A program made the translations under genes and the position numbers. Below the pieces are notes generated by a model, which was given only the letters and a program-made list of their open reading frames with translations, ran no database searches and was not told where the DNA came from. 64,000 nt of DNA, from the NCBI RefSeq assembly GCF_006345805.1, contig NC_043009.1, positions 40,734,001-40,798,000 on the forward strand. The letters are read 5' to 3'. Positions 3,176 to 61,611 of this stretch are shown here, one piece after another. Source of the stretch: Octopus sinensis (taxonomy: Eukaryota). How positions within the stretch are numbered: the stretch's first letter is position 1; each line of letters begins with the position of its first letter.

Positions 3176-3505
3176 TATATATAATATAATTCGAGACAAA
3201 ACCACTATTTTAAAACCAAACAAGGAAAGACTTAATCAATACATAAAATTTTAATATAAATATTTATTTAATTTATTATTTTATTTATTTATTTATTTTT
3301 TATTTTTTATTTATTTATTTATTTTATTATTTATTTTTATTTAATTTATATTAAAATTTTATGTATTGATTAAGTCTTTCCTTGTTTGGTTTTAAAATAG
3401 TGGTTTTGTCTCGAATTATATTATATAATATTTTACTATAAAATTGGATTTAACCCTAAATCTGATTTTTCCCTGTAATTTTGGATTCATTCCCTAATAT
3501 TTTTA
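3176..3505. mobile_element. Fold-back Penelope-like tail element between TA arrays
   Basis: Inverted arms ~3176-3261 and ~3344-3427. The termini (GAGACAAAACCACTAT; TTTTCCCTGTAA..TTTGGA..CCCTAATATT) recur at 59990-60253. Confidence 0.6.
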
Positions 3506-5801: not shown

Positions 5802-6139
5802 AAAATATTTGTTTACACCTGCGTTAACTCCATTTTTATTCATATTATTCAAATATTCACGTAAACACGAAGTTTCTACCTTTATAAACAAGGAGTTACA
5901 ACATCTTTACTTGTGAGATTTTTGCTGCCCTGGTAACTATTTATTTATTTATCCGTGTTAATTGTTAACAAGGTAAAAATACACTCATCTATTTATATAT
6001 ATATATATATATACAAATTATAAAAATAAAAAATAATACAGTACAGTATTGTTTCTACTTCGCGGATTTTCACCCGTCGCGGGGTGTTTTGTAACGTAGC
6101 ACCCACAATAGTCGAGGGATTACTGTACCGCAGCGGGTT

Positions 6140-6490
6140 CCTAAGTTCGATATGCACGCAGTCTTCCACACTTATCAGTTCGCTTCCTCCAGTTTTTCTT
6201 TTCATGTATAGGCGATCTGTGTCCTCACGCGGATGATGGACCCTATGCATTTTTAAGGGCTTTCTTGTCTTCCTGTACAACACCTTAAGCTCATCCGCTG
6301 TCCACTTCAGAATTCTAGCGCCAAACCGAACCACTGCGACTGCGCGAGAGATTATTGCCGAAATTATGTTTCTGGCGTTCAAACTTTGAATTCAATATTT
6401 TTCTCATTTGCAAACGATAAACTCTTTGTCTTTTCTTTCATATGCTTAATTCCATTTCTTCAAGTATCCTCATGTATTTGTATCCGGATT
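6140..6490 (-). mobile_element. R4/Dong-clade LINE remnant, RT thumb region (same element as 4850-5330)
   Basis: NARNIISAIISRAVAVVRFGARILKWTADELKVLYRKTRK..HHPREDTDRLYMKRKTGGSELISVEDC matches the R4/Dong W..EL..DRKTRK..HHP..D.DRLY..R..GGRGL motif. Confidence 0.85.
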
Positions 6491-7365: not shown

Positions 7366-7421
7366 TATATTTATAGATTATGTATAGAGAGAGAAGAGAG
7401 AGGAGAGAGAGAGAGAGAGAA

Positions 7422-7894
7422 AAGTAAAGAGTGAAAAAACCACAGAAGGCTTAAATGTTAAAAAATATATATATTTGCGTCAATATGCCTGAAGAATATT
7501 AGAAAATTTTAAAAAAATTTGTTTCTCTTATAATGACATAATTTAAAAGAAAGACCGGTTTCGCGTGTAGCTTTTCAAATTTCTTGTGACGTTATGTTTA
7601 TGTTGAATAGAGTTATCGTTATGTTTATGTTCAGGAGAGTTCTAAATAAGGGAAGGTAGTCTTCCCTTATTTAGAACTCTCCTGAACATAAACATAACGA
7701 TAACTCTATTCAACATAAACATAACGTCACAAGAAATTTGAAAAGCTACACGCGAAACCGGTCTTTCTTTTAAATTATGTCATTATAAGAGAAACAAATT
7801 TTTTTTAAATTTTCTAATATTCTTCAGACATATTGACGCAAATATATATATTTTTTAACATTTAAGCCTTCTGTAGTTTTTTCACTCTTTACTT
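7422..7894. repeat. Near-perfect 473-bp palindrome (arms ~234 bp, 5-nt spacer) carrying a hammerhead 3' half
   Basis: Arms 7422-7655 and 7661-7894 with spacer GTAGT. GAAA-CCGG-TC at 7754-7763, mirrored at ~7553-7562. Confidence 0.9.
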
Positions 7895-8018
7895 GTTTCT
7901 ATATATTCACCACGTGCTTTCACAAACCAACTTTATATATATATATATACATGCATACATGATGTATATACATATATGCATATACATACATACATACATA
8001 CATACATACATACATACA

Positions 8019-19899: not shown

Positions 19900-20154
19900 C
19901 ATCGTCGGCGATGGCAGTACGGCTAGAAAGAGAGAGAGAGGTAGTTAGTTAATCTGCCTTTATGCTCCCTAACATAATTCGGTTATTCTACATTGAAATA
20001 ATAAAAGCTTAAATTGAATTGCTCCACTCTCGTCGTCTTTTATTTATTTATTCATTTAATTATTTATTTTTCTCGTTTTCTTATGGACGAAAGTAAAGCT
20101 GCCTGAAATGATGCGTTTAATTTGTGAAAGATCGACGAAACTTGAAGATATATA

Positions 20155-20646
20155 TATTCCACACTTGGAATTCGCATCATCAGTTTGGAATCCCTATCTT
20201 GCTCAGAACATTGACCTCCTGGAATCTGTCCAGAGACGTGCAACCAAACGCATACCCTCCATCAGACACCTACCATATTCTGAGCGCCTTGTTTCCCTGG
20301 GCATGGATTCACTGAAGCTCCGGCGTCTAGCGACGGACTTGGTAAACACCCACAAGGTTATCAACCACCTCACCAACAACAACACTGAACACCTTTTTTG
20401 ATCTCCATGTGTCCAACACACGTGGACATGCCTACAAAGTCAGAAAACAGCACAGCTCCCATGACTTTCGGAAACATTTTTTCACGCTCAGGGTTGCTGA
20501 AGCGTGGAATAAACTGCCTGCATCAGTTGTTGACTGCCATGACACTGCATCCTTTAAGGCCCTCATGCTTCCCGAAATCCGTCGAAACTACACCTGATTA
20601 TAGATACACTTTAGATGAGTTGTAGTGCACCTGAGCACTGTACACA

Positions 20647-27547: not shown

Positions 27548-28075
27548 GGCAGCAAGCTGGCAGAATCGTTAGCACGCCGGGCAAAATGCTTAGCGGCATT
27601 TCGTCCATCCTTACGTTCTGAGTTCAGATTCCACCGCGGTCGACTTTGCTTTTCATTCTTTCGGGCTCGATAAAATAAGTACTAGTCAAGCATTCGAATC
27701 GATGTAATCGACGGATCTTTACCGTCTGATTTAGAAAATTTACCGGCAGATTTAGAAAATAATTTTTTGTAATTAAATACTTTCAAACTTCGTATACTGG
27801 TAGAATGTGTCATATAAAACATCTTTTACTCTTAGAGTTTTTGAGAAAACTTTATATTTACGATAACTTTAACACGAAATAACTTAGTAAATATAAAGTT
27901 TTCTCAAAAACTCTAAGAGTAAAAGATGTTTTATATGACACCAGTATACGAAGTTTGAAAGTATTTAATTACAAAAAATTATTTTCTAAATCTGCCGGTC
28001 AGAAGGTAAAGATCCTAATCGACTAACTCCCTCCCACAAATTTTCAGGCCTTGTGCCTATAATAGAAAAGGTTAT
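27548..28075 (+). mobile_element. SINE family B interrupted by a MITE; further degraded B copies follow to ~28400
   Basis: Head GGCAGCAAGCTGGCAGAATCG at 27548. The sequence resumes after 28023. Confidence 0.85.
27713..28015. mobile_element. Fold-back MITE with GG..CC ends and 8-bp TSD (Merlin-like)
   Basis: TIR GGATCTTTACC/GGTAAAGATCC, arms ~140 bp. TSD TAATCGAC at 27705-12 and 28016-23. Confidence 0.85.
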
Positions 28076-31653: not shown

Positions 31654-31832
31654 TTCAGATGACTATAACACAAGGGGCTAAACACAGAGGGACAAATACA
31701 AACATAAGTGGAGACGAAAAAAGACAAATGAATGTGAAAATGAAAAAAATGAATAATGAAATAGAATGAAGCCACTTGACCCCACACCCGAGTGACTTCA
31801 TTTACACTTTTTTTACTTTCTTTTTACAAACT

Positions 31833-32043
31833 ATTGCAGCGTGGAAGGTGTTTATAAGCCATTTAAGAAACACACAAAACCCGTTAGATTCACTTCAACA
31901 TTTAAATTTAATTTGTCAAAATATTTTCGTCGCTTTGAGACCGCGACGAAAATATTTTGACAAATTAAATTTAAATGTTGAAGTGAATCTAACGGTTTTT
32001 GTGTGTTTCTTAAATGGCTTATAAACATCTTCCCCGCTGCAAT
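31833..32043. repeat. Palindrome (arms ~100 bp, 9-nt loop) centred on a hammerhead-like stem II
   Basis: GTCGC-TTTGAGACC-GCGAC followed by GAAA-ATAT-TT-TGACAAA. Arms 31833-31933 and 31943-32043. Confidence 0.85.
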
Positions 32044-32821
32044 TGTTTTCGTTCCAGCACACGATCTCAGATCCGGTCACTTGCTATGCAAGTACATCTC
32101 CGTAATTTTTACAAACTTATAATTAAGAAAGTTTAACTTAGGCGGCAACTTACTTTCGTCTGCTGTCACGCCTATGTCCAATGTTTCTGTCCCACAGTTT
32201 TCCATTAAACCGAAACATTTTTTGGAGTGGGGGTTGGGGACTTTTGGGCACCTGTCTATTTTTGTTATTGTTTGTGTCAGGTTTCTTGTCGGCACTCTTT
32301 TTACCTGGAATACCACAATCTGGTCCTCCATAACAAGTAGGATGGCAGCTACCAGCCAGACAACATATACCCCAGGACTAACCTTTGACTAACCTTTCGC
32401 ACAAAAAAAATTCACGATCAACTCGGTCACGGATGATACTAACAACGAGAAAAAAAATCAATGTTAATTCATTGATGCATTTGGGCAAGTCTATGTCTGT
32501 TTTATGAGACAATTTCCAAAAAAAAGGTTTTAATAAAATTCAAAACTCTGCAAAAATTCTTCATGGTTCCAAACGTTTCTTACTTTTTACTCAATGAGAG
32601 AGAGAGGGAGGGAAGGAGGGAGAGAGAGAGAGAGAGATAGGAATGTAATGTTTATCGCGACCTACGTTTAGGTGGCGATAAGAACAGACGGTACTGCTAT
32701 TTTTACGCCAAGAGGACGCTTCTTCCTATACACACACACACACAATATATATATATACATATATATATATACAAATATATATATACATACATATATGTAT
32801 TTATATATATATATATGTATT

Positions 32822-33193: not shown

Positions 33194-33202
33194 TATATAA
33201 TA

Positions 33203-33732
33203 TATATAGTAAAGCAAATAAAAGGGCTACAGCAGGTGCTTCGCCTCATACCGAAGGAATTAGAAATGGCAGTCAAAGACTGTTTTTCCATTTCTGTAAG
33301 TGGAGATTCCAAAAACGAAGGCCCGTGCAGCTCACATACACAAAACCGGAGAGTAGCAAATAGACGCAAACAGTCACTTACCGTTAATAACGAACATGTT
33401 TCTGGATCACAAACTTGGAAAAGTAGTTTGATTTCCTTCTTCGGCGCTATATTCGATAGATTTACCAAATGCCACAGGCCCTCACTTCTGATCCAGCGAC
33501 ATCAGATAGTGGGGGGAAGTGTGCAGATGTTAAACCTAAGTGATGACTAGGAACGTAAATTTTCCCTCCAAAATTCTGCCATGCGCGCCTTCTGGGTAAT
33601 CGTAATGGGCCTTCGTTTTTGGAATCTCCACTTACAGAAAATGGAAAAAACAGTCTTTGACTGCCATTTCTAATTCCTTCGGTATGAGGCAAAGCAGCCT
33701 GCTGCTAGCCCTTTTATTTGCTTTACTATATA
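33203..33732. repeat. Inverted repeat (~120-bp arms, 283-bp spacer) beside a TA array
   Basis: 33203-33323 is the reverse complement of 33607-33732. Confidence 0.88.
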
Positions 33733-33744
33733 CTGAACCTTACA

Positions 33745-33805
33745 AAGTTCCTGACGATGAATTTGTCGTATTTACATACCGAAATTTACCGGTAAATAAT
33801 TGTTG
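33745..33805 (+). ncRNA. Degenerate hammerhead ribozyme
   Basis: CTGACGA 33751-57. GAAA 33781-84. 14-nt palindrome ATTTACCGGTAAAT, then A as H17. Stems I and II are poorly paired. Confidence 0.5.
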
Positions 33806-33867
33806 GTTACATGAAAAACCACAGAAAAATTATTTACCATTTTTATTGTATATATATATATATATAT

Positions 33868-33912
<45 letters not shown>

Positions 33913-33944
33913 ATTTATATATATTAGAATGTATATATATATAT

Positions 33945-34002
<58 letters not shown>

Positions 34003-34239
34003 ATTAACAATTGAGGATAAAATCTTTAAAAGAAATTATCAGTAGTCAGCGTGAAAACCTCGTAAGAGAAAAATCCGTAAATTCTTCCTCTTTGAAAATA
34101 TTCATTTATATTATATGAGGGTACTACTATTCGTAGATACCAACACGCTAAGAGGGACCAATGCGGTCAAAACTACTAAAAATAAACAAAATTTTACCGA
34201 ATGCAAAACTTCAAACACATCATTTTAAAAAAGAATTCA

Positions 34240-34303
34240 GTTACATATCACATGTGATTTCGCATTTAATGCAGAATACGCATTTCATGTTCGTCAGTGC
34301 AAC
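34240..34303 (-). ncRNA. Type I hammerhead ribozyme (mirror copy of 34943-35006)
   Basis: The reverse complement gives GTTGCA-CTGACGA-...-GAAA-TCACATGTGA-TA-TGTAAC. Confidence 0.8.
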
Positions 34304-34942
34304 AAACTCAAGAAATATAAGAAAAAACATAACATTACAAACTCGATAGCCAACCGTAGAATTCGTCGTAGCTTGTACGAATGTTTATCTTTACATATCT
34401 ATGAAAATGGCGGGCTTTTTCGCAATGCATTTCGGTAACAAATTGCCTAGTCGGAATAAAAATTCAGTATTGAACTATTCCGGTGAAAAAATAAATTAAC
34501 AATTGAGGATAAAATCTTTAAAAGAAATAGTATCAGTAGTCAGCGTGAAAAACCTGTAGAGAAAAAATCCGTAAATTCTTCCTCTTTGAAAATATTCATT
34601 TATATTATATTGAGGGTACTACTATTCGTAGATACCAACACGCTAAGAGGGACCAATGCGGTCAAAACTACTAAAAATAGGATTTTTTTCTTACGAGGTT
34701 TTTCACGCTGACTACTGATAATTCTTTTAAAGATTTTATCCTCAATTGTTAATTTATTTTTCACCGGAATAGTTCAATACTGAATTTTATTCCGACTAGG
34801 CAATTTGTCACCGAAATGCATTGCGAAAAAGCCCGCCATTTTCATAGATATGTAAGGATAAACATTCGTACAAGCTACGACGAATTCTACGGTTGGCTAT
34901 CGAGTTTGTAATGTTATGTTTTTTCTTATATTTCTTGAGTTT

Positions 34943-35006
34943 GTTGCACTGACGAACATGAAATGCATATTCTGCATTAAATGCGAAATCACATGTGATA
35001 TGTAAC
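34943..35006 (+). ncRNA. Type I hammerhead ribozyme
   Basis: Stem I GTTGCA/TGTAAC (one G-U). CTGACGA 34949-55. Stem II (A)CAT/ATG(C). GAAA 34985-88. Palindromic ATCACATGTGAT. Predicted cleavage after A35000. Confidence 0.82.
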
Positions 35007-35137
35007 TGAATTCTTTTTTAAAATAATGATGTGTTTTGAAGTTTTGCATTCGGTAAAATTTTGTTTATTTTTAGTAGTTTTGACCGCATTGGTCCCTCTT
35101 AGCGTGTTGGTATCTACGAATAGTAGTACCCTCAATA

Positions 35138-35223
<86 letters not shown>

Positions 35224-39823: not shown

Positions 39824-39884
39824 TGTATGTATGTATGTATGTATGTATGTATGTATGTATGTATGTATATATGTATATATTATC

Positions 39885-40318
39885 AGTAATCATAAAGGGT
39901 AAAATTAATTAATCAATTTATAATTAATAATCTTACCAAGTAGTTTTGGTATGTTAAAAGAACCATTATCGGTAAACTTATACAAAAATTTTATAATTAT
40001 AAACATAATTATAATTAGGGTTTAGCAAAATATCTTGATTACTAGTGCTCCCAAATTTATAATTGAAATACTATACTGATGATGGAAATAAGATATGGTT
40101 AATTTTACATATCTTTAATCCTGAAACGCGTATATAGTTAATCAAAGCCGGGTGGATTCGGTATTTTTTCTTTTTGTCTGTGTGAGTTGAGAGTATTGCT
40201 ATCTGGGAGATATCTTATGGTAGTAGAATAGTATTTAACTGCTACTTCTAAATTTCGGTATGGAGTGAAGCAATTTTGCTAAACCCTAATCATAATTATG
40301 TTTATAATTATAAAATTT

Positions 40319-49342: not shown

Positions 49343-49540
49343 AGGCGGTGAAATGGTAGAACCATTACCACGCCGGGCACCAATGCTTAGCAGCGTTTCA
49401 CCCGTCTTTACGTTCTGCCGAGGTCGACTTTGCCTTCCATCCTTTCGGACGCGATAAAATAAGTACCAGTTGAACACTGGGGTCGATGTATTCGCCTTGG
49501 CCCCTCCCACAAACCTACTAGCCTTGTGCCAAATATTGAA
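49343..49540 (+). mobile_element. SINE family B
   Basis: GAGGTCGACTTTGCCTTCCATCCTTTCGG block. Confidence 0.82.
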
Positions 49541-51024
49541 GCCAGTATCACGGTCACAGAGTGTCCATCAAGAGCTGCTGCCCTTTTTTGTCCCACCAGA
49601 TCATGAAGAAGCAAGCGACGTCCCCAGCCACACCGATACCAATGGCTGCTCCTTGAATCTGCATATATATTATTGAACGTGATTATGTGGTTCGTCAAAG
49701 CAATTTTTATGCTGGCGTCTATCGCATGTGCAATCATCTTTCTCTCCTGATTGTTATTCTCTGGATTTCTGAATATGTAATGCTTCTTGCATTATTACAA
49801 TCATTATAATGTAAAAGACTGAAAACGCTATCTGTCAGAGTTAATAGAGTGCTGGATAATATGCCTTATGGGGGTTCCATTACGTCCCTTTTTGTATGAT
49901 CTAATACATATAACTAGATTGTCATCCGTCATATAACAGGTAACTTTCTATTCTTATGCCGTTGGGTGTAATATCAGAAAATATGGCATACTTACGATAA
50001 CTATAATTTAACTTCTGACGCTTATACAAAATAATGGATCGAAAGCTAATTTTCAAAAGGAAATATTTATTACTTTAAAATAAAATGAAATAAAACAAAA
50101 TAAAGATATACATATTCATTCATAATACGTTCCGGCAGATTCGAACTTGAATATGCTAACCTCTGTTGTATTTTGTTCACGGAGAGCAATTTATCTCTAT
50201 TTCTTATTTCTATAACTCCTCAAATTCTGTCATTTACTTCTTACATACATACATACATACTACATACATACATACATACATACATACATACATACATACA
50301 TACACAGGAGGGGAGAGAGAGACAGACAGGCAGACAGGTAGGCAGGCAGACAGATAGATAGATTGATATAGATATGCCTATGCGGTCTACGCGTGTACAC
50401 AGAGACAGAGAGAAATAAAGAAACGGAGAAAGAGGGGGAGAGAGGAGAGGAAATATTTACTAGAAAATACGTACCGAAGAAATGCCAAATGCCGTCAAGC
50501 TTATGTTGAAAGAAATAGTTTATTTAATGGTTTAGAAGCAACGCAATAATGTCGATAAGTACAAAGTAGTGATAGTGGTGACTTTGGTATATTTGCTGCC
50601 TTAGAAATTTCTTCACTCGCAAAACACAACTTTGCCAAGTGACACATATAGAAGATGAAAAAGAGATCAGACATCAAACATGTTAAACCAATAAATGTTT
50701 ATGACCTACAAAGAAGAATTATTAGAGAAAATAGTAGAGGGGGCTATCTTTTATCTTTTCACTTGTTGCAGCAATACTGGGGCACCGCCTTGAAGAACTT
50801 TTAGTCAATTGAATCGACCCCAATACTTGTTTTTTAAAACCTGATCCATATTCTGTCGGTATAATAGTGCGTAACCGCTAAGTTATGGAGACGTAAATAC
50901 ACCAACGTTGGTTGTCGAGTGGTGATGAGAGGAGAGGCAAACGCAAATACAAACACACACACACATATATAATTGTTAAAGAGGACAACAAGCGTTAAGG
51001 CAAGGCAAGCATCTCAAGTCATAT

Positions 51025-56762: not shown

Positions 56763-56862
56763 NNNNNNNNNNNNNNNNNNNNNNNNNNNNNNNNNNNNNN
56801 NNNNNNNNNNNNNNNNNNNNNNNNNNNNNNNNNNNNNNNNNNNNNNNNNNNNNNNNNNNNNN
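56763..56862. other. Assembly gap (100 N)
   Basis: Run of N after (GA)n. Confidence 1.
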
Positions 56863-57944: not shown

Positions 57945-58200
57945 AACTTATAAACAGTTTTTCTATGCTAATATTCTCAGAACAGACTTTAAATCGTCAA
58001 TTTCCACATTTCACTATCCTGTTGTATAATGAAATGTGGAAATTGACGATTTAAAGTCTGTTATCAGCATATTGGCATAGAAAAACTTTTTCTTTTGCCC
58101 TTGTTTATAAGTTGTTTATACTTTTAAACTTCTTTATAGGTATTTTAATATGCCGCCACTTTTGATGAAATTTTTTCTGAAAATTTTTTTATCCTATATA
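57945..58200. mobile_element. Fold-back element ending in the conserved 3' hairpin motif
   Basis: Arms ~57945-58013 and ~58030-58113. Motif at 58150-58196. Confidence 0.65.
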
Positions 58201-60287: not shown

Positions 60288-60654
60288 TATCAAATATTCT
60301 CTGTATACATTACACTTTGTAATGCTCAAGAGGTTTAAGCTTGAGCAAGTATAGAAGCAAATGTGAGGATATGCATGTTAGGCAGGGGTCAGTATGCAAA
60401 TATATTAAATACATGAAAATAGAAAAAAATGTACGTATGTTTGCATACAAAAAAGGTATGACTTACCCTGAATAGAAATGATATGAAGAATTAAATAGGT
60501 TGAAGAAAAGTATTACAAATCCAACAGTTACTTCTGGTGGTCTAAAATAATATTTGTAGATTGCTAGGCTGACTTTGTCTTGGTTCAAGATTACATTTAG
60601 GTATGGATACTAATAGTTTTGGTATTAAATAGATTTAATAAAATACGTGAAAGA

Positions 60655-61030
60655 TCAGAAATACCTGTCTTCGCAAAACAAAATTACATCTGAGAATCTA
60701 TTAAATAATGAGGAGTTGTGAAGGCGAAGAATGGTTAGCGATTCTCTTAAACATAATTTACACATATCAATGTTGGCATTGTTTGGACGAGTTTCACTTT
60801 ACTATTGACCAAGATAAGGCCTATGGAATATTTTAGTATTTAAGGTGGTTGATAATTTAAAATTTGGATTGGAGAAAGAATTCATGTGTGCACAATAGCG
60901 GCGCTTGAAATCAACTGTACCACCGATATATACCCTTGCTACATGGCACTTGTAGATTACATTCTTACGTAAACAAAAGGCTCCAAGAGGGCATAGTTGA
61001 GAAACCCGACAATTGCAAGTGTACCTACCT
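60655..61030 (-). pseudogene. GIY-YIG endonuclease domain remnant of a Penelope-like retroelement
   Basis: CNCRVSQLCPLGAFCLRKNVIYKCHVARVYIGGTVDFKRRYCAHMNSF..STTL, then after frameshifts WSIV..MCKLCLRESLTILRLHNSSLFNRFSDVILFC. Confidence 0.85.
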
Positions 61031-61339
61031 GCTCTGTGGTTAGAGTTTACTGCTAGGGAAGTTGAACTCCGTTGGTCCATTATTAGTGAGGAAGGACCAA
61101 AAGTACAATCTGTATCAGTATTGGATTGGGAGGTAGTATTGCAGCTAGTATATATTGTCGAGTGGGTAGAATTGTGGGAAGATGGCTTGAGTTTGGTATT
61201 ACTAAGATGAGTGGGGTTACTAAGGGTTGTATTATCGCTATTCGGTGAGTTAATTTGAGGTGCAGTGTGAGGGTTTGGGTATTATGAGGACTGGTGTTGA
61301 AGTTTGCGTCTTCTTACTATCAACACTTCACATGTAAGT

Positions 61340-61435
61340 TCCCTTCACTGAAGACGGAGGCTCGTTTCATCTGACGATGGAATCAATCTACAAACATTAT
61401 TTTGGACCATCGTGCTCCCAGAAACAGCTGTTGGA
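61340..61435 (+). ncRNA. Long-stem-II hammerhead variant in the pLTR
   Basis: CTGAAGA 61348-54. 66-nt stem II region with ACGATGG/CCATCGT. GAAA 61421-24. Palindrome AACAGCTGTT. GGA. Confidence 0.65.
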
Positions 61436-61611
61436 TTTGTAATACTTTTCTTCAACCCCTTAATCTTTGATATCAATCAATTTTATTCTGTATAAATAAG
61501 ACCTTTTTGTATGTAAACATTTGTATATATACATTTTTTGCATTTCATTTATTTAATATACTTTGTATATTGACCTGCCTAACTAGCTTATCATTACACT
61601 TGCTATATATA

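Follow-up and report, generated by a model that had tools for sequence, protein, structure and literature searches.

Organization of the Insert

The window, meaning the whole 64-kb stretch of DNA that was analyzed, carries an insert at 34002..35140, between two (TA)n runs. Its left end lies at 34002 rather than at 34004, as first annotated. The insert consists of two arms built from a single unit and lying in opposite orientations, with the following features:

33849..34001: left (TA)n flank, likely target site
34679 to 34002, minus strand: arm A, 678 nt, about 1.4 head-to-tail units; its RNA-sense 3′ end at 34002 enters (TA)n
34494..34679, minus strand: partial upstream unit of arm A, pLTR-like, repeating 34002-34184
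34002..34107, minus strand: extension found on arm A only, 105 nt, a ‘tail’-like difference between the two 3′ ends
34303-34240, minus strand: type I hammerhead of arm A, predicted cut after 34246
34494/34493, minus strand: unit-to-unit junction of arm A, adjoining a recurrent 3′ end (34491) and a branch point (34490)
34679..34680: inversion junction, head-to-head (5′-to-5′) and blunt, with no letters seen to be common to both sides
34680 to 35140, plus strand: arm B, 461 nt (0.93 unit), an inverted 5′-truncated copy
34754/34755, plus strand: unit-to-unit junction of arm B
34943-35006, plus strand: type I hammerhead of arm B, predicted cut after A35000
35141..35242: right (TA)n flank, likely target site

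This arrangement bears out the initial annotation of about 1.4 tandem units on the minus strand plus about one inverted unit, with the unit-to-unit junction present in both orientations. The period of arm A is 495 nt (492 at its outer end), and its repeats overlap over 184 nt, where 184 of 192 alignment columns match with 0 substitutions. At its 5′ end, the upstream partial unit stops about 60 nt short of the would-be second cut site. Arm B ends at unit position 34601-34603, where it enters (TA)n. Aligned with arm A over 470 columns, it matches at 454; there are 3 substitutions, and the 13 gaps fall mostly in base runs. These base-run indels suggest a long-read consensus with residual errors. 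The two flanks of the insert are not mirror images of each other and, both being (TA)n, they obscure any target-site duplication (one of >4 bp is a retrozyme trait).

The 495-nt unit has a GC content of 31.7% and, as previously noted, no ORF, the longest ATG frame being 31 aa in the sense and 62 aa in the antisense direction. An ORF for RT and GIY-YIG between pLTRs, as in Penelope-like elements (PLEs), was not found in the unit, nor was any long ORF. When the insert was searched by tblastn with 150 PLE-type proteins, 32 rows were obtained at E up to 1, the best at 0.055, and were taken as chance. Folded as a circle, the unit reaches −108.1 kcal/mol (60 shuffles: −89.6 ± 5.9; z −3.2), in a branched structure that is 61% paired. 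A ‘conserved hairpin’ had also been annotated, without a location; the two hairpins in 35070-35135 are no better than shuffles (z −1.26).

Predicted Hammerhead Ribozymes

Each arm contains one hammerhead, a predicted self-cutting RNA motif, as originally proposed. In both motifs, stem I comprises 6 bp followed by a further 5-6 bp, no element of the catalytic core is missing, stem III is palindromic, and the cut triplet is AUA. The term ‘intact’ suits the core, which is complete, but not stem II, whose base (10.1-11.1) is A·C rather than G-C in both arms; a G10.1-C11.1 pair is described as highly conserved in hammerheads (Cervera 2014, PMC4209133).

A strict descriptor gives 2 matches in 64 kb, both in the insert, and none in 100/100 dinucleotide shuffles, a control that is generous because the thresholds were chosen once the hit was already known. 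A loose descriptor gives 3 matches in the window, against a shuffle mean of 0.12. With Rfam, 0 matches reached the gathering score over the whole window, and the 5 matches at E up to 10 over 33200-35200 are at chance level, none of them a hammerhead. In an 81-nt window of arm B, the hammerhead fold is the local minimum; in the circular unit, it is 2.7 kcal/mol less stable than the minimum.

Both motifs are on the sense strand of the unit, i.e., in one polarity only, with one per strand at the locus. As the locus lacks two hammerheads on the same strand, release of a monomer or a circle by double cleavage is impossible from this copy.

Other Inverted Inserts in the Window

Three other stretches of the window (33205-33850, ~39880-40318, and 60290-61604) each consist of an inverted pair whose ends are unequal, lie between microsatellites, and contain a hammerhead-core motif. 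They are unrelated to the unit and were used as internal controls for the unequal head-to-head layout.

The insert at 33205-33850 is (TA)n-flanked and head-to-head, and is separated from the hammerhead-unit insert by one microsatellite. Its arms are identical at 121/126 positions, its extra end is 116 nt, and it carries a degenerate hammerhead at +33751, with a long palindromic stem III and a weak stem I. No similarity between the unit and this neighbor was found (best E 1.1). The insert at 39880-40318, with a hammerhead-core motif at +40076, has arms identical at 77/99 positions and is older; its extra end measures ~105 nt (TATG flank).

The insert at 60290-61604 lies between (TA)n runs, has an extra end of 66 nt, and contains an inverted pLTR with a hammerhead core at +61371. 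By its sequence, it is a 5′-truncated coding PLE, composed of a predicted minus-strand GIY-YIG remnant (about 60690-61236) and a pLTR. The GIY-YIG-like frame at 60805-61029 has an Atlas lead of 0.93 and 239 relatives at E up to 0.001; PF01541 matches were obtained in 3/6 scanned relatives, all below the curated cut-off. The relatives include 806- and 897-aa proteins, which match near their C-terminus. These two also have a YRDD motif, which we take to be RT-like.

The Family in Public Sequencing Runs

Part of the stretch is present in 20 of the 24 listed public runs, under four organism labels, one of which occurs only at a share of 0.09 (X20). Four of the 24 runs (X1, X3, X13, and X19, the last two being RNA by guess only) were compared with the unit, using one exact period (34146-34640) as the reference. 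The two DNA-guess runs contribute 871 and 580 matching contigs and the two RNA-guess runs 30 and 6, ranging from 99+ to under 90% alike. These numbers and this identity range point to a family with many copies and several variants. The copies had been called near identical and young: near identity holds for the arms, but it dates a single insertion only and was rejected as the age of the family. Contigs in X13 and X19, which do not reveal RNA ends, strand, or circles, were likewise rejected as proof of transcription, the RNA nature of these runs being a guess. The summed depth (up to 390,000) was discarded as a copy number because it is not a valid count.

Back-joints of 491-495 nt occur in 4/4 runs. 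The back-joint from 34640 to 34146 (9 contigs in X1, 10 in X3, 1 each in X13 and X19) was not retained as a sign of arrays, as it falls at the arbitrary cut and speaks for continuity only. The unit junction is bridged by X1 record 6 under a 31-letter rule, and three more pieces cross it with shorter sides, among the 32 of 1537 pieces listed. No piece covering the whole unit was found among the contigs of the four runs.

Loose ends of contigs locate the borders of other copies. Among the 24 rows listed out of 143, 11 are on the 3′ side, and 5 of these 11 have TA-type flanks, at two positions only. The first, 34491, is the end of arm A and is seen in 13 contigs from 3 runs (X1 6, X3 6, X19 1). 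The second, 34601, is the end of arm B and is seen in 2 contigs from 2 runs (X13 1, X19 1). Two further 3′-side rows lie elsewhere, at 34323 and 34402 (both X3), and the four others (34213, and 34558 three times) resemble sequence variants. No end falls at the ribozyme cut site among the 24 listed rows. Judging by these positions, the boundary of the unit is the recurrent 3′ end and not the ribozyme cut. Individual records show further insertions: a second head-to-head copy, X19 record 20, has its end at 34601, and X19 record 17 is 5′-truncated at 34319, where it meets a TA-type flank. Seven contigs (X3 6, X13 1) depart from the unit at 34490 into a different AT-rich upstream sequence, which could be the body of an autonomous partner or a sister unit. 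At low depth, X3 also has a joint that links 34604 back to 34323, suggestive of either a self-insertion at 34601-34604, which is AT-rich, or a shorter tandem.

Single-letter variation connects the two arms with the family. The T at 34373 is common to both arms, while A accounts for ~95% or more of the depth, pointing to a single event from a single source. At 34390, arm B departs from arm A and carries a minor variant of the family (11% of the depth in X1). Five variants of the hammerhead motif occur in the public contigs (G at 10.1, U at 7, two in the internal loop, and one G·U to A-U change); none of those listed disrupts the fold, but the variant table seems to lack entries for the 3′ half of the motif. 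At 10.1, A makes up the majority of the depth in 3/4 runs, and some family members have G, which gives a predicted canonical 4-bp stem II. The absence of listed variants at 34146-34278 was rejected as a sign of conservation, as other letters are present there in a second table.

A PLE-Type Insertion Footprint

PLE insertions are described as having partial tandems, an inverted 5′-truncated copy at the 5′ end, a tail, and a bias towards microsatellites (Craig 2021, PMC8557442), and head-to-head is given as their usual arrangement (Arkhipova 2013, PMC3846280). Near truncated PLEs, hammerheads have been reported to occur in pairs, with the two motifs on opposite strands and 100-700 bp apart (Cervera 2014, PMC4209133). 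In vitro, a PLE protein cuts AT-rich DNA, nicking and extending both strands, and starts at two internal RNA sites, which accounts for the tail (Frangieh 2024, PMC11167929).

The insert has this layout, with a partial tandem and an inverted 5′-truncated copy at its 5′ end. The target is of the same type, as both flanks are (TA)n and the contigs have TA-type loose ends. Fixed internal starts with a tail are indicated by the recurrence of the two ends, except that their 105-nt difference exceeds the 30-40 bp of the papers; extra ends of 66 and 116 nt are found in neighboring inserts. The unequal phases of the two arms can thus be explained as an ordinary PLE tail, based on the published PLE layout, the start sites of Frangieh 2024, and the inserts of the window. 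The initial annotation had regarded permuted start points as evidence of a circle; with both 3′ ends recurring in other runs and three window inserts sharing the layout, they lose that meaning.

Our main reading, to which we assign a probability of roughly 65%, is that a multi-copy ORF-less unit has been pasted into (TA)n by the proteins of an autonomous PLE, with an RNA exceeding one unit as the template, probably in linear, uncleaved form. In this reading, we infer the enzyme, the partner, and the form of the template. The family is likely to be retrozyme-like and PLE-mobilized, of a kind known from other animals, with the insert as a dispersed copy.

The length of the template follows from the anatomy. 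From these ends, a cleaved monomer allows at most 244 or 138 nt, against the 678 and 461 nt of the arms, and both arms traverse the predicted cut site, so that the template must have been longer than a cleaved monomer. A circular or multimeric template, as proposed at the outset, is thus supported in its length but not by the phase of the arms. An uncleaved linear template is favored by the A·C mismatch in most of the depth, by the PLE-type end that forms the unit boundary, by the main use of unprocessed RNA by the PLE protein tested in vitro (Frangieh 2024, PMC11167929), and by the cleavage of 1/9 Xenopus dimers in vitro (Li, Clavereau and Pollet, bioRxiv 10.64898/2026.07.22.740005; hereafter Li 2026). 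The template overlap of the two arms is ~76 nt, and two overlapping primings or two templates therefore fit better than single-template twin priming.

The insertion may have proceeded as follows. A tandem source elsewhere would be transcribed through more than one unit. A PLE endonuclease would nick both strands of AT-rich DNA, as suggested by the in vitro work (Frangieh 2024), and reverse transcription would begin at two preferred internal RNA sites, ~105 nt apart. As the arms show, both cDNAs extend past the unit junction and the cut site of the hammerhead and end at unrelated 5′ points; they would then be joined 5′-to-5′, yielding the head-to-head insert. A read-through transcript of such an insert would form a hairpin of roughly 460 bp. 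As for the unit, it probably originated from a short PLE end that inserted into its own pLTR, at the AT-rich start.

Several observations weigh against the PLE route. No autonomous partner was found, the 150 PLE-type proteins being without a match on the insert. The end at 34601 is based on 2 contigs plus this locus among the 24 of 143 rows listed, and the two X3 rows at 34323 and 34402 lie at other positions. The inversion junction of the locus, 34679/34680, is absent from the joints listed for the four runs. Fixed ends belonging to a coding PLE had been named in advance as evidence against a circular RNA element: recurrent 3′ ends were found, but a coding partner was not.

Alternative Templates and Origins

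The most serious competitor keeps the PLE enzyme and changes the template. In the model of Cervera and de la Pena (2020, PMC7229834), applied to this unit, dimeric loci would release 495-nt monomers through their hammerheads, a host ligase would close them, and the RT would go round the circle more than once. Such a template, combined with fixed start sites, would give identical DNA, and it agrees with a closed, ORF-less unit whose cut site is crossed by both arms, with the lack of substitutions between the two repeats of arm A, and with the stability of the circular fold, in which the hammerhead costs little energy (2.7 kcal/mol). The members with G at 10.1 would also have the canonical stem II, and mussel, coral, and axolotl retrozymes are reported to make circles. 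Nevertheless, we consider a circular template unlikely. No circle was observed; the RNA-guess runs provide only low-depth contigs, with genomic TA flanks among them; A·C prevails at the base of stem II in most of the depth of 3/4 runs; the unit boundary is a PLE-type end and not the cut site; few of the Xenopus dimers were cleaved in vitro (Li 2026); and the difference at 34390, a family variant, is easier to reconcile with separate units or molecules than with one circle. The fuller version, i.e., a working cephalopod retrozyme whose dimeric loci release a 495-nt circle on which a PLE RT, priming from both nicked strands, starts at two fixed sites, appears unlikely too. If true, the insert would be a direct footprint of the proposed, unproven step of PLE-on-circRNA mobilization, and the partner PLE could be traced via the sequence joining at 34490.

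Considerably less probable is a reading in which the arms are what is left of a coding PLE, namely its pLTR only, with the 1.4-unit tandem made of short copies inserted in their own pLTR and no ORF-less master. The unit junction lies exactly at the recurrent 3′ end, an AT-rich site, and a PLE protein favors an ATT site at its own ORF-pLTR junction (Frangieh 2024, PMC11167929); the seven contigs that diverge upstream of 34490 could represent the body of a longer element. However, the same junction is found in both arms, which indicates that it already existed in the template, and it is crossed by X1 record 6 and, with shorter sides, by three other pieces among those listed. Moreover, the loose ends at 34491 lead into TA and not into coding sequence, among the 3′-side rows listed.

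An assembly artefact, by which a long-read fold-back would have added the inversion to an ordinary tandem copy, is very improbable: the differences between the arms are mostly indels in base runs and the inversion junction is missing from the listed joints, but the flanks are not mirrored, the termini of both arms recur in other runs, X19 has a second head-to-head copy, and unrelated inserts of the window have an identical layout. We give equally little credence to an endogenous copy of a viroid-like RNA replicating RNA-to-RNA, and hence to the annotated ‘replicon’, since the size, the lack of an ORF, and a fold more stable than shuffles are countered by a hammerhead in one polarity only (viroid-like RNAs have ribozymes in both), a branched fold with a GC of 32%, the 871 and 580 contigs in DNA-guess runs, and 0 matches to exact and gapped hammerhead patterns in metagenome contigs and in viral and prokaryote genome contigs.

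Comparison with Known Elements

Like the animal non-LTR retrozymes (PMC7229834), the unit is non-coding, head-to-tail, and a few hundred nt long, with one type I hammerhead each; a GC under 50%, a stable self-paired fold, and many copies are also common to both. ‘Retrozyme-like’ is, therefore, a fair label for this closed, ORF-less unit, and the resemblance fits the view of a non-autonomous PLE derivative. The differences are that 495 nt exceeds the retrozyme range of 150-450 bp (mussel units are about 350-390 bp; PMC7229834), that stem III is longer here (4-5 bp, palindromic) and 10.1-11.1 is A·C, and that the insert is head-to-head and has no same-strand hammerhead pair.

The vertebrate retrozymes are stated to derive from PLE pLTRs (Li 2026). 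These are also ORF-less hammerhead units tied to PLEs, and 495 falls within their 51-972 bp; most of their families have few repeats, like this unit. Their evidence consists of co-occurrence and pLTR homology, mainly in vertebrates, whereas here it consists of an insertion footprint, without an identified partner pLTR. Li 2026 calls ‘active’ those loci with two consecutive same-strand hammerhead units; as this locus has one hammerhead per strand, the copy was filed as a dispersed retrozyme-like insertion and not as an active retrozyme.

With the EN+ PLEs (Penelope/Poseidon, Neptune, Nematis, and Naiad; PMC8557442, PMC3846280, PMC11167929), the insert shares the tandem, the inversion, the unequal ends, the AT-rich or (TA)n target, and a hammerhead in the repeat, but it has no RT/GIY-YIG ORF and its tail is longer than theirs. 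In contrast to the minimal PLE motifs (Cervera 2014, PMC4209133), stem I of its hammerhead is of canonical length and A9 is not followed by an extra base. Non-autonomous Chlamys PLEs, MRC1 among them, form pLTRs and head-to-tail multimers, as here, although MRC1 comes from a green alga and the N-terminal-EN clades are described as lacking canonical hammerheads (Craig 2021, PMC8557442).

The literature search found no cephalopod retrozyme, species lists in some supplements being outside its reach. The 2026 repeat annotation of Octopus vulgaris reports recently active Penelope-like families, with no ribozyme mention in its main text (PMC13282606). Should the host be an octopus, the step in novelty would be small, given that molluscan retrozymes are already known. 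What moves animal retrozymes is still debated: PLEs were proposed from co-occurrence (Cervera 2020, PMC7229834) and linked through pLTR homology in vertebrates (Li 2026, bioRxiv 10.64898/2026.07.22.740005). A PLE insertion footprint on an ORF-less hammerhead unit constitutes a different line of support, and the same 64-kb window holds a predicted truncated coding PLE with an identical layout beside that unit. The locus also offers two defined candidate priming sites (34491 and 34601), together with a warning that a phase difference between inverted copies is no evidence for a circular template.

Further Features of the Window

Near-perfect palindromes or foldbacks, with arms 87-100% alike, lie at 7416-7900, 31828-32048, 27742-27999, 57952-58091, and 3184-3421. 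A short hammerhead-core-like motif, which may be due to chance, occurs in both arms of 7416-7900. Being near-perfect palindromes, 3184-3421 and 7416-7900 were excluded as layout controls. An assembly gap of 100 N is located at 56763-56862. The window also has what we take to be octopus SINEs, in agreement with an octopus as the putative host. Pfam returned 0 families for four window frames, with no match for the frame at 49408-49791, and a protein word-index search found 0/6 candidates. The frames at 49408-49791, 20060-20401, and 5993-6391 resemble what we assume to be decayed reverse-transcriptase fragments.
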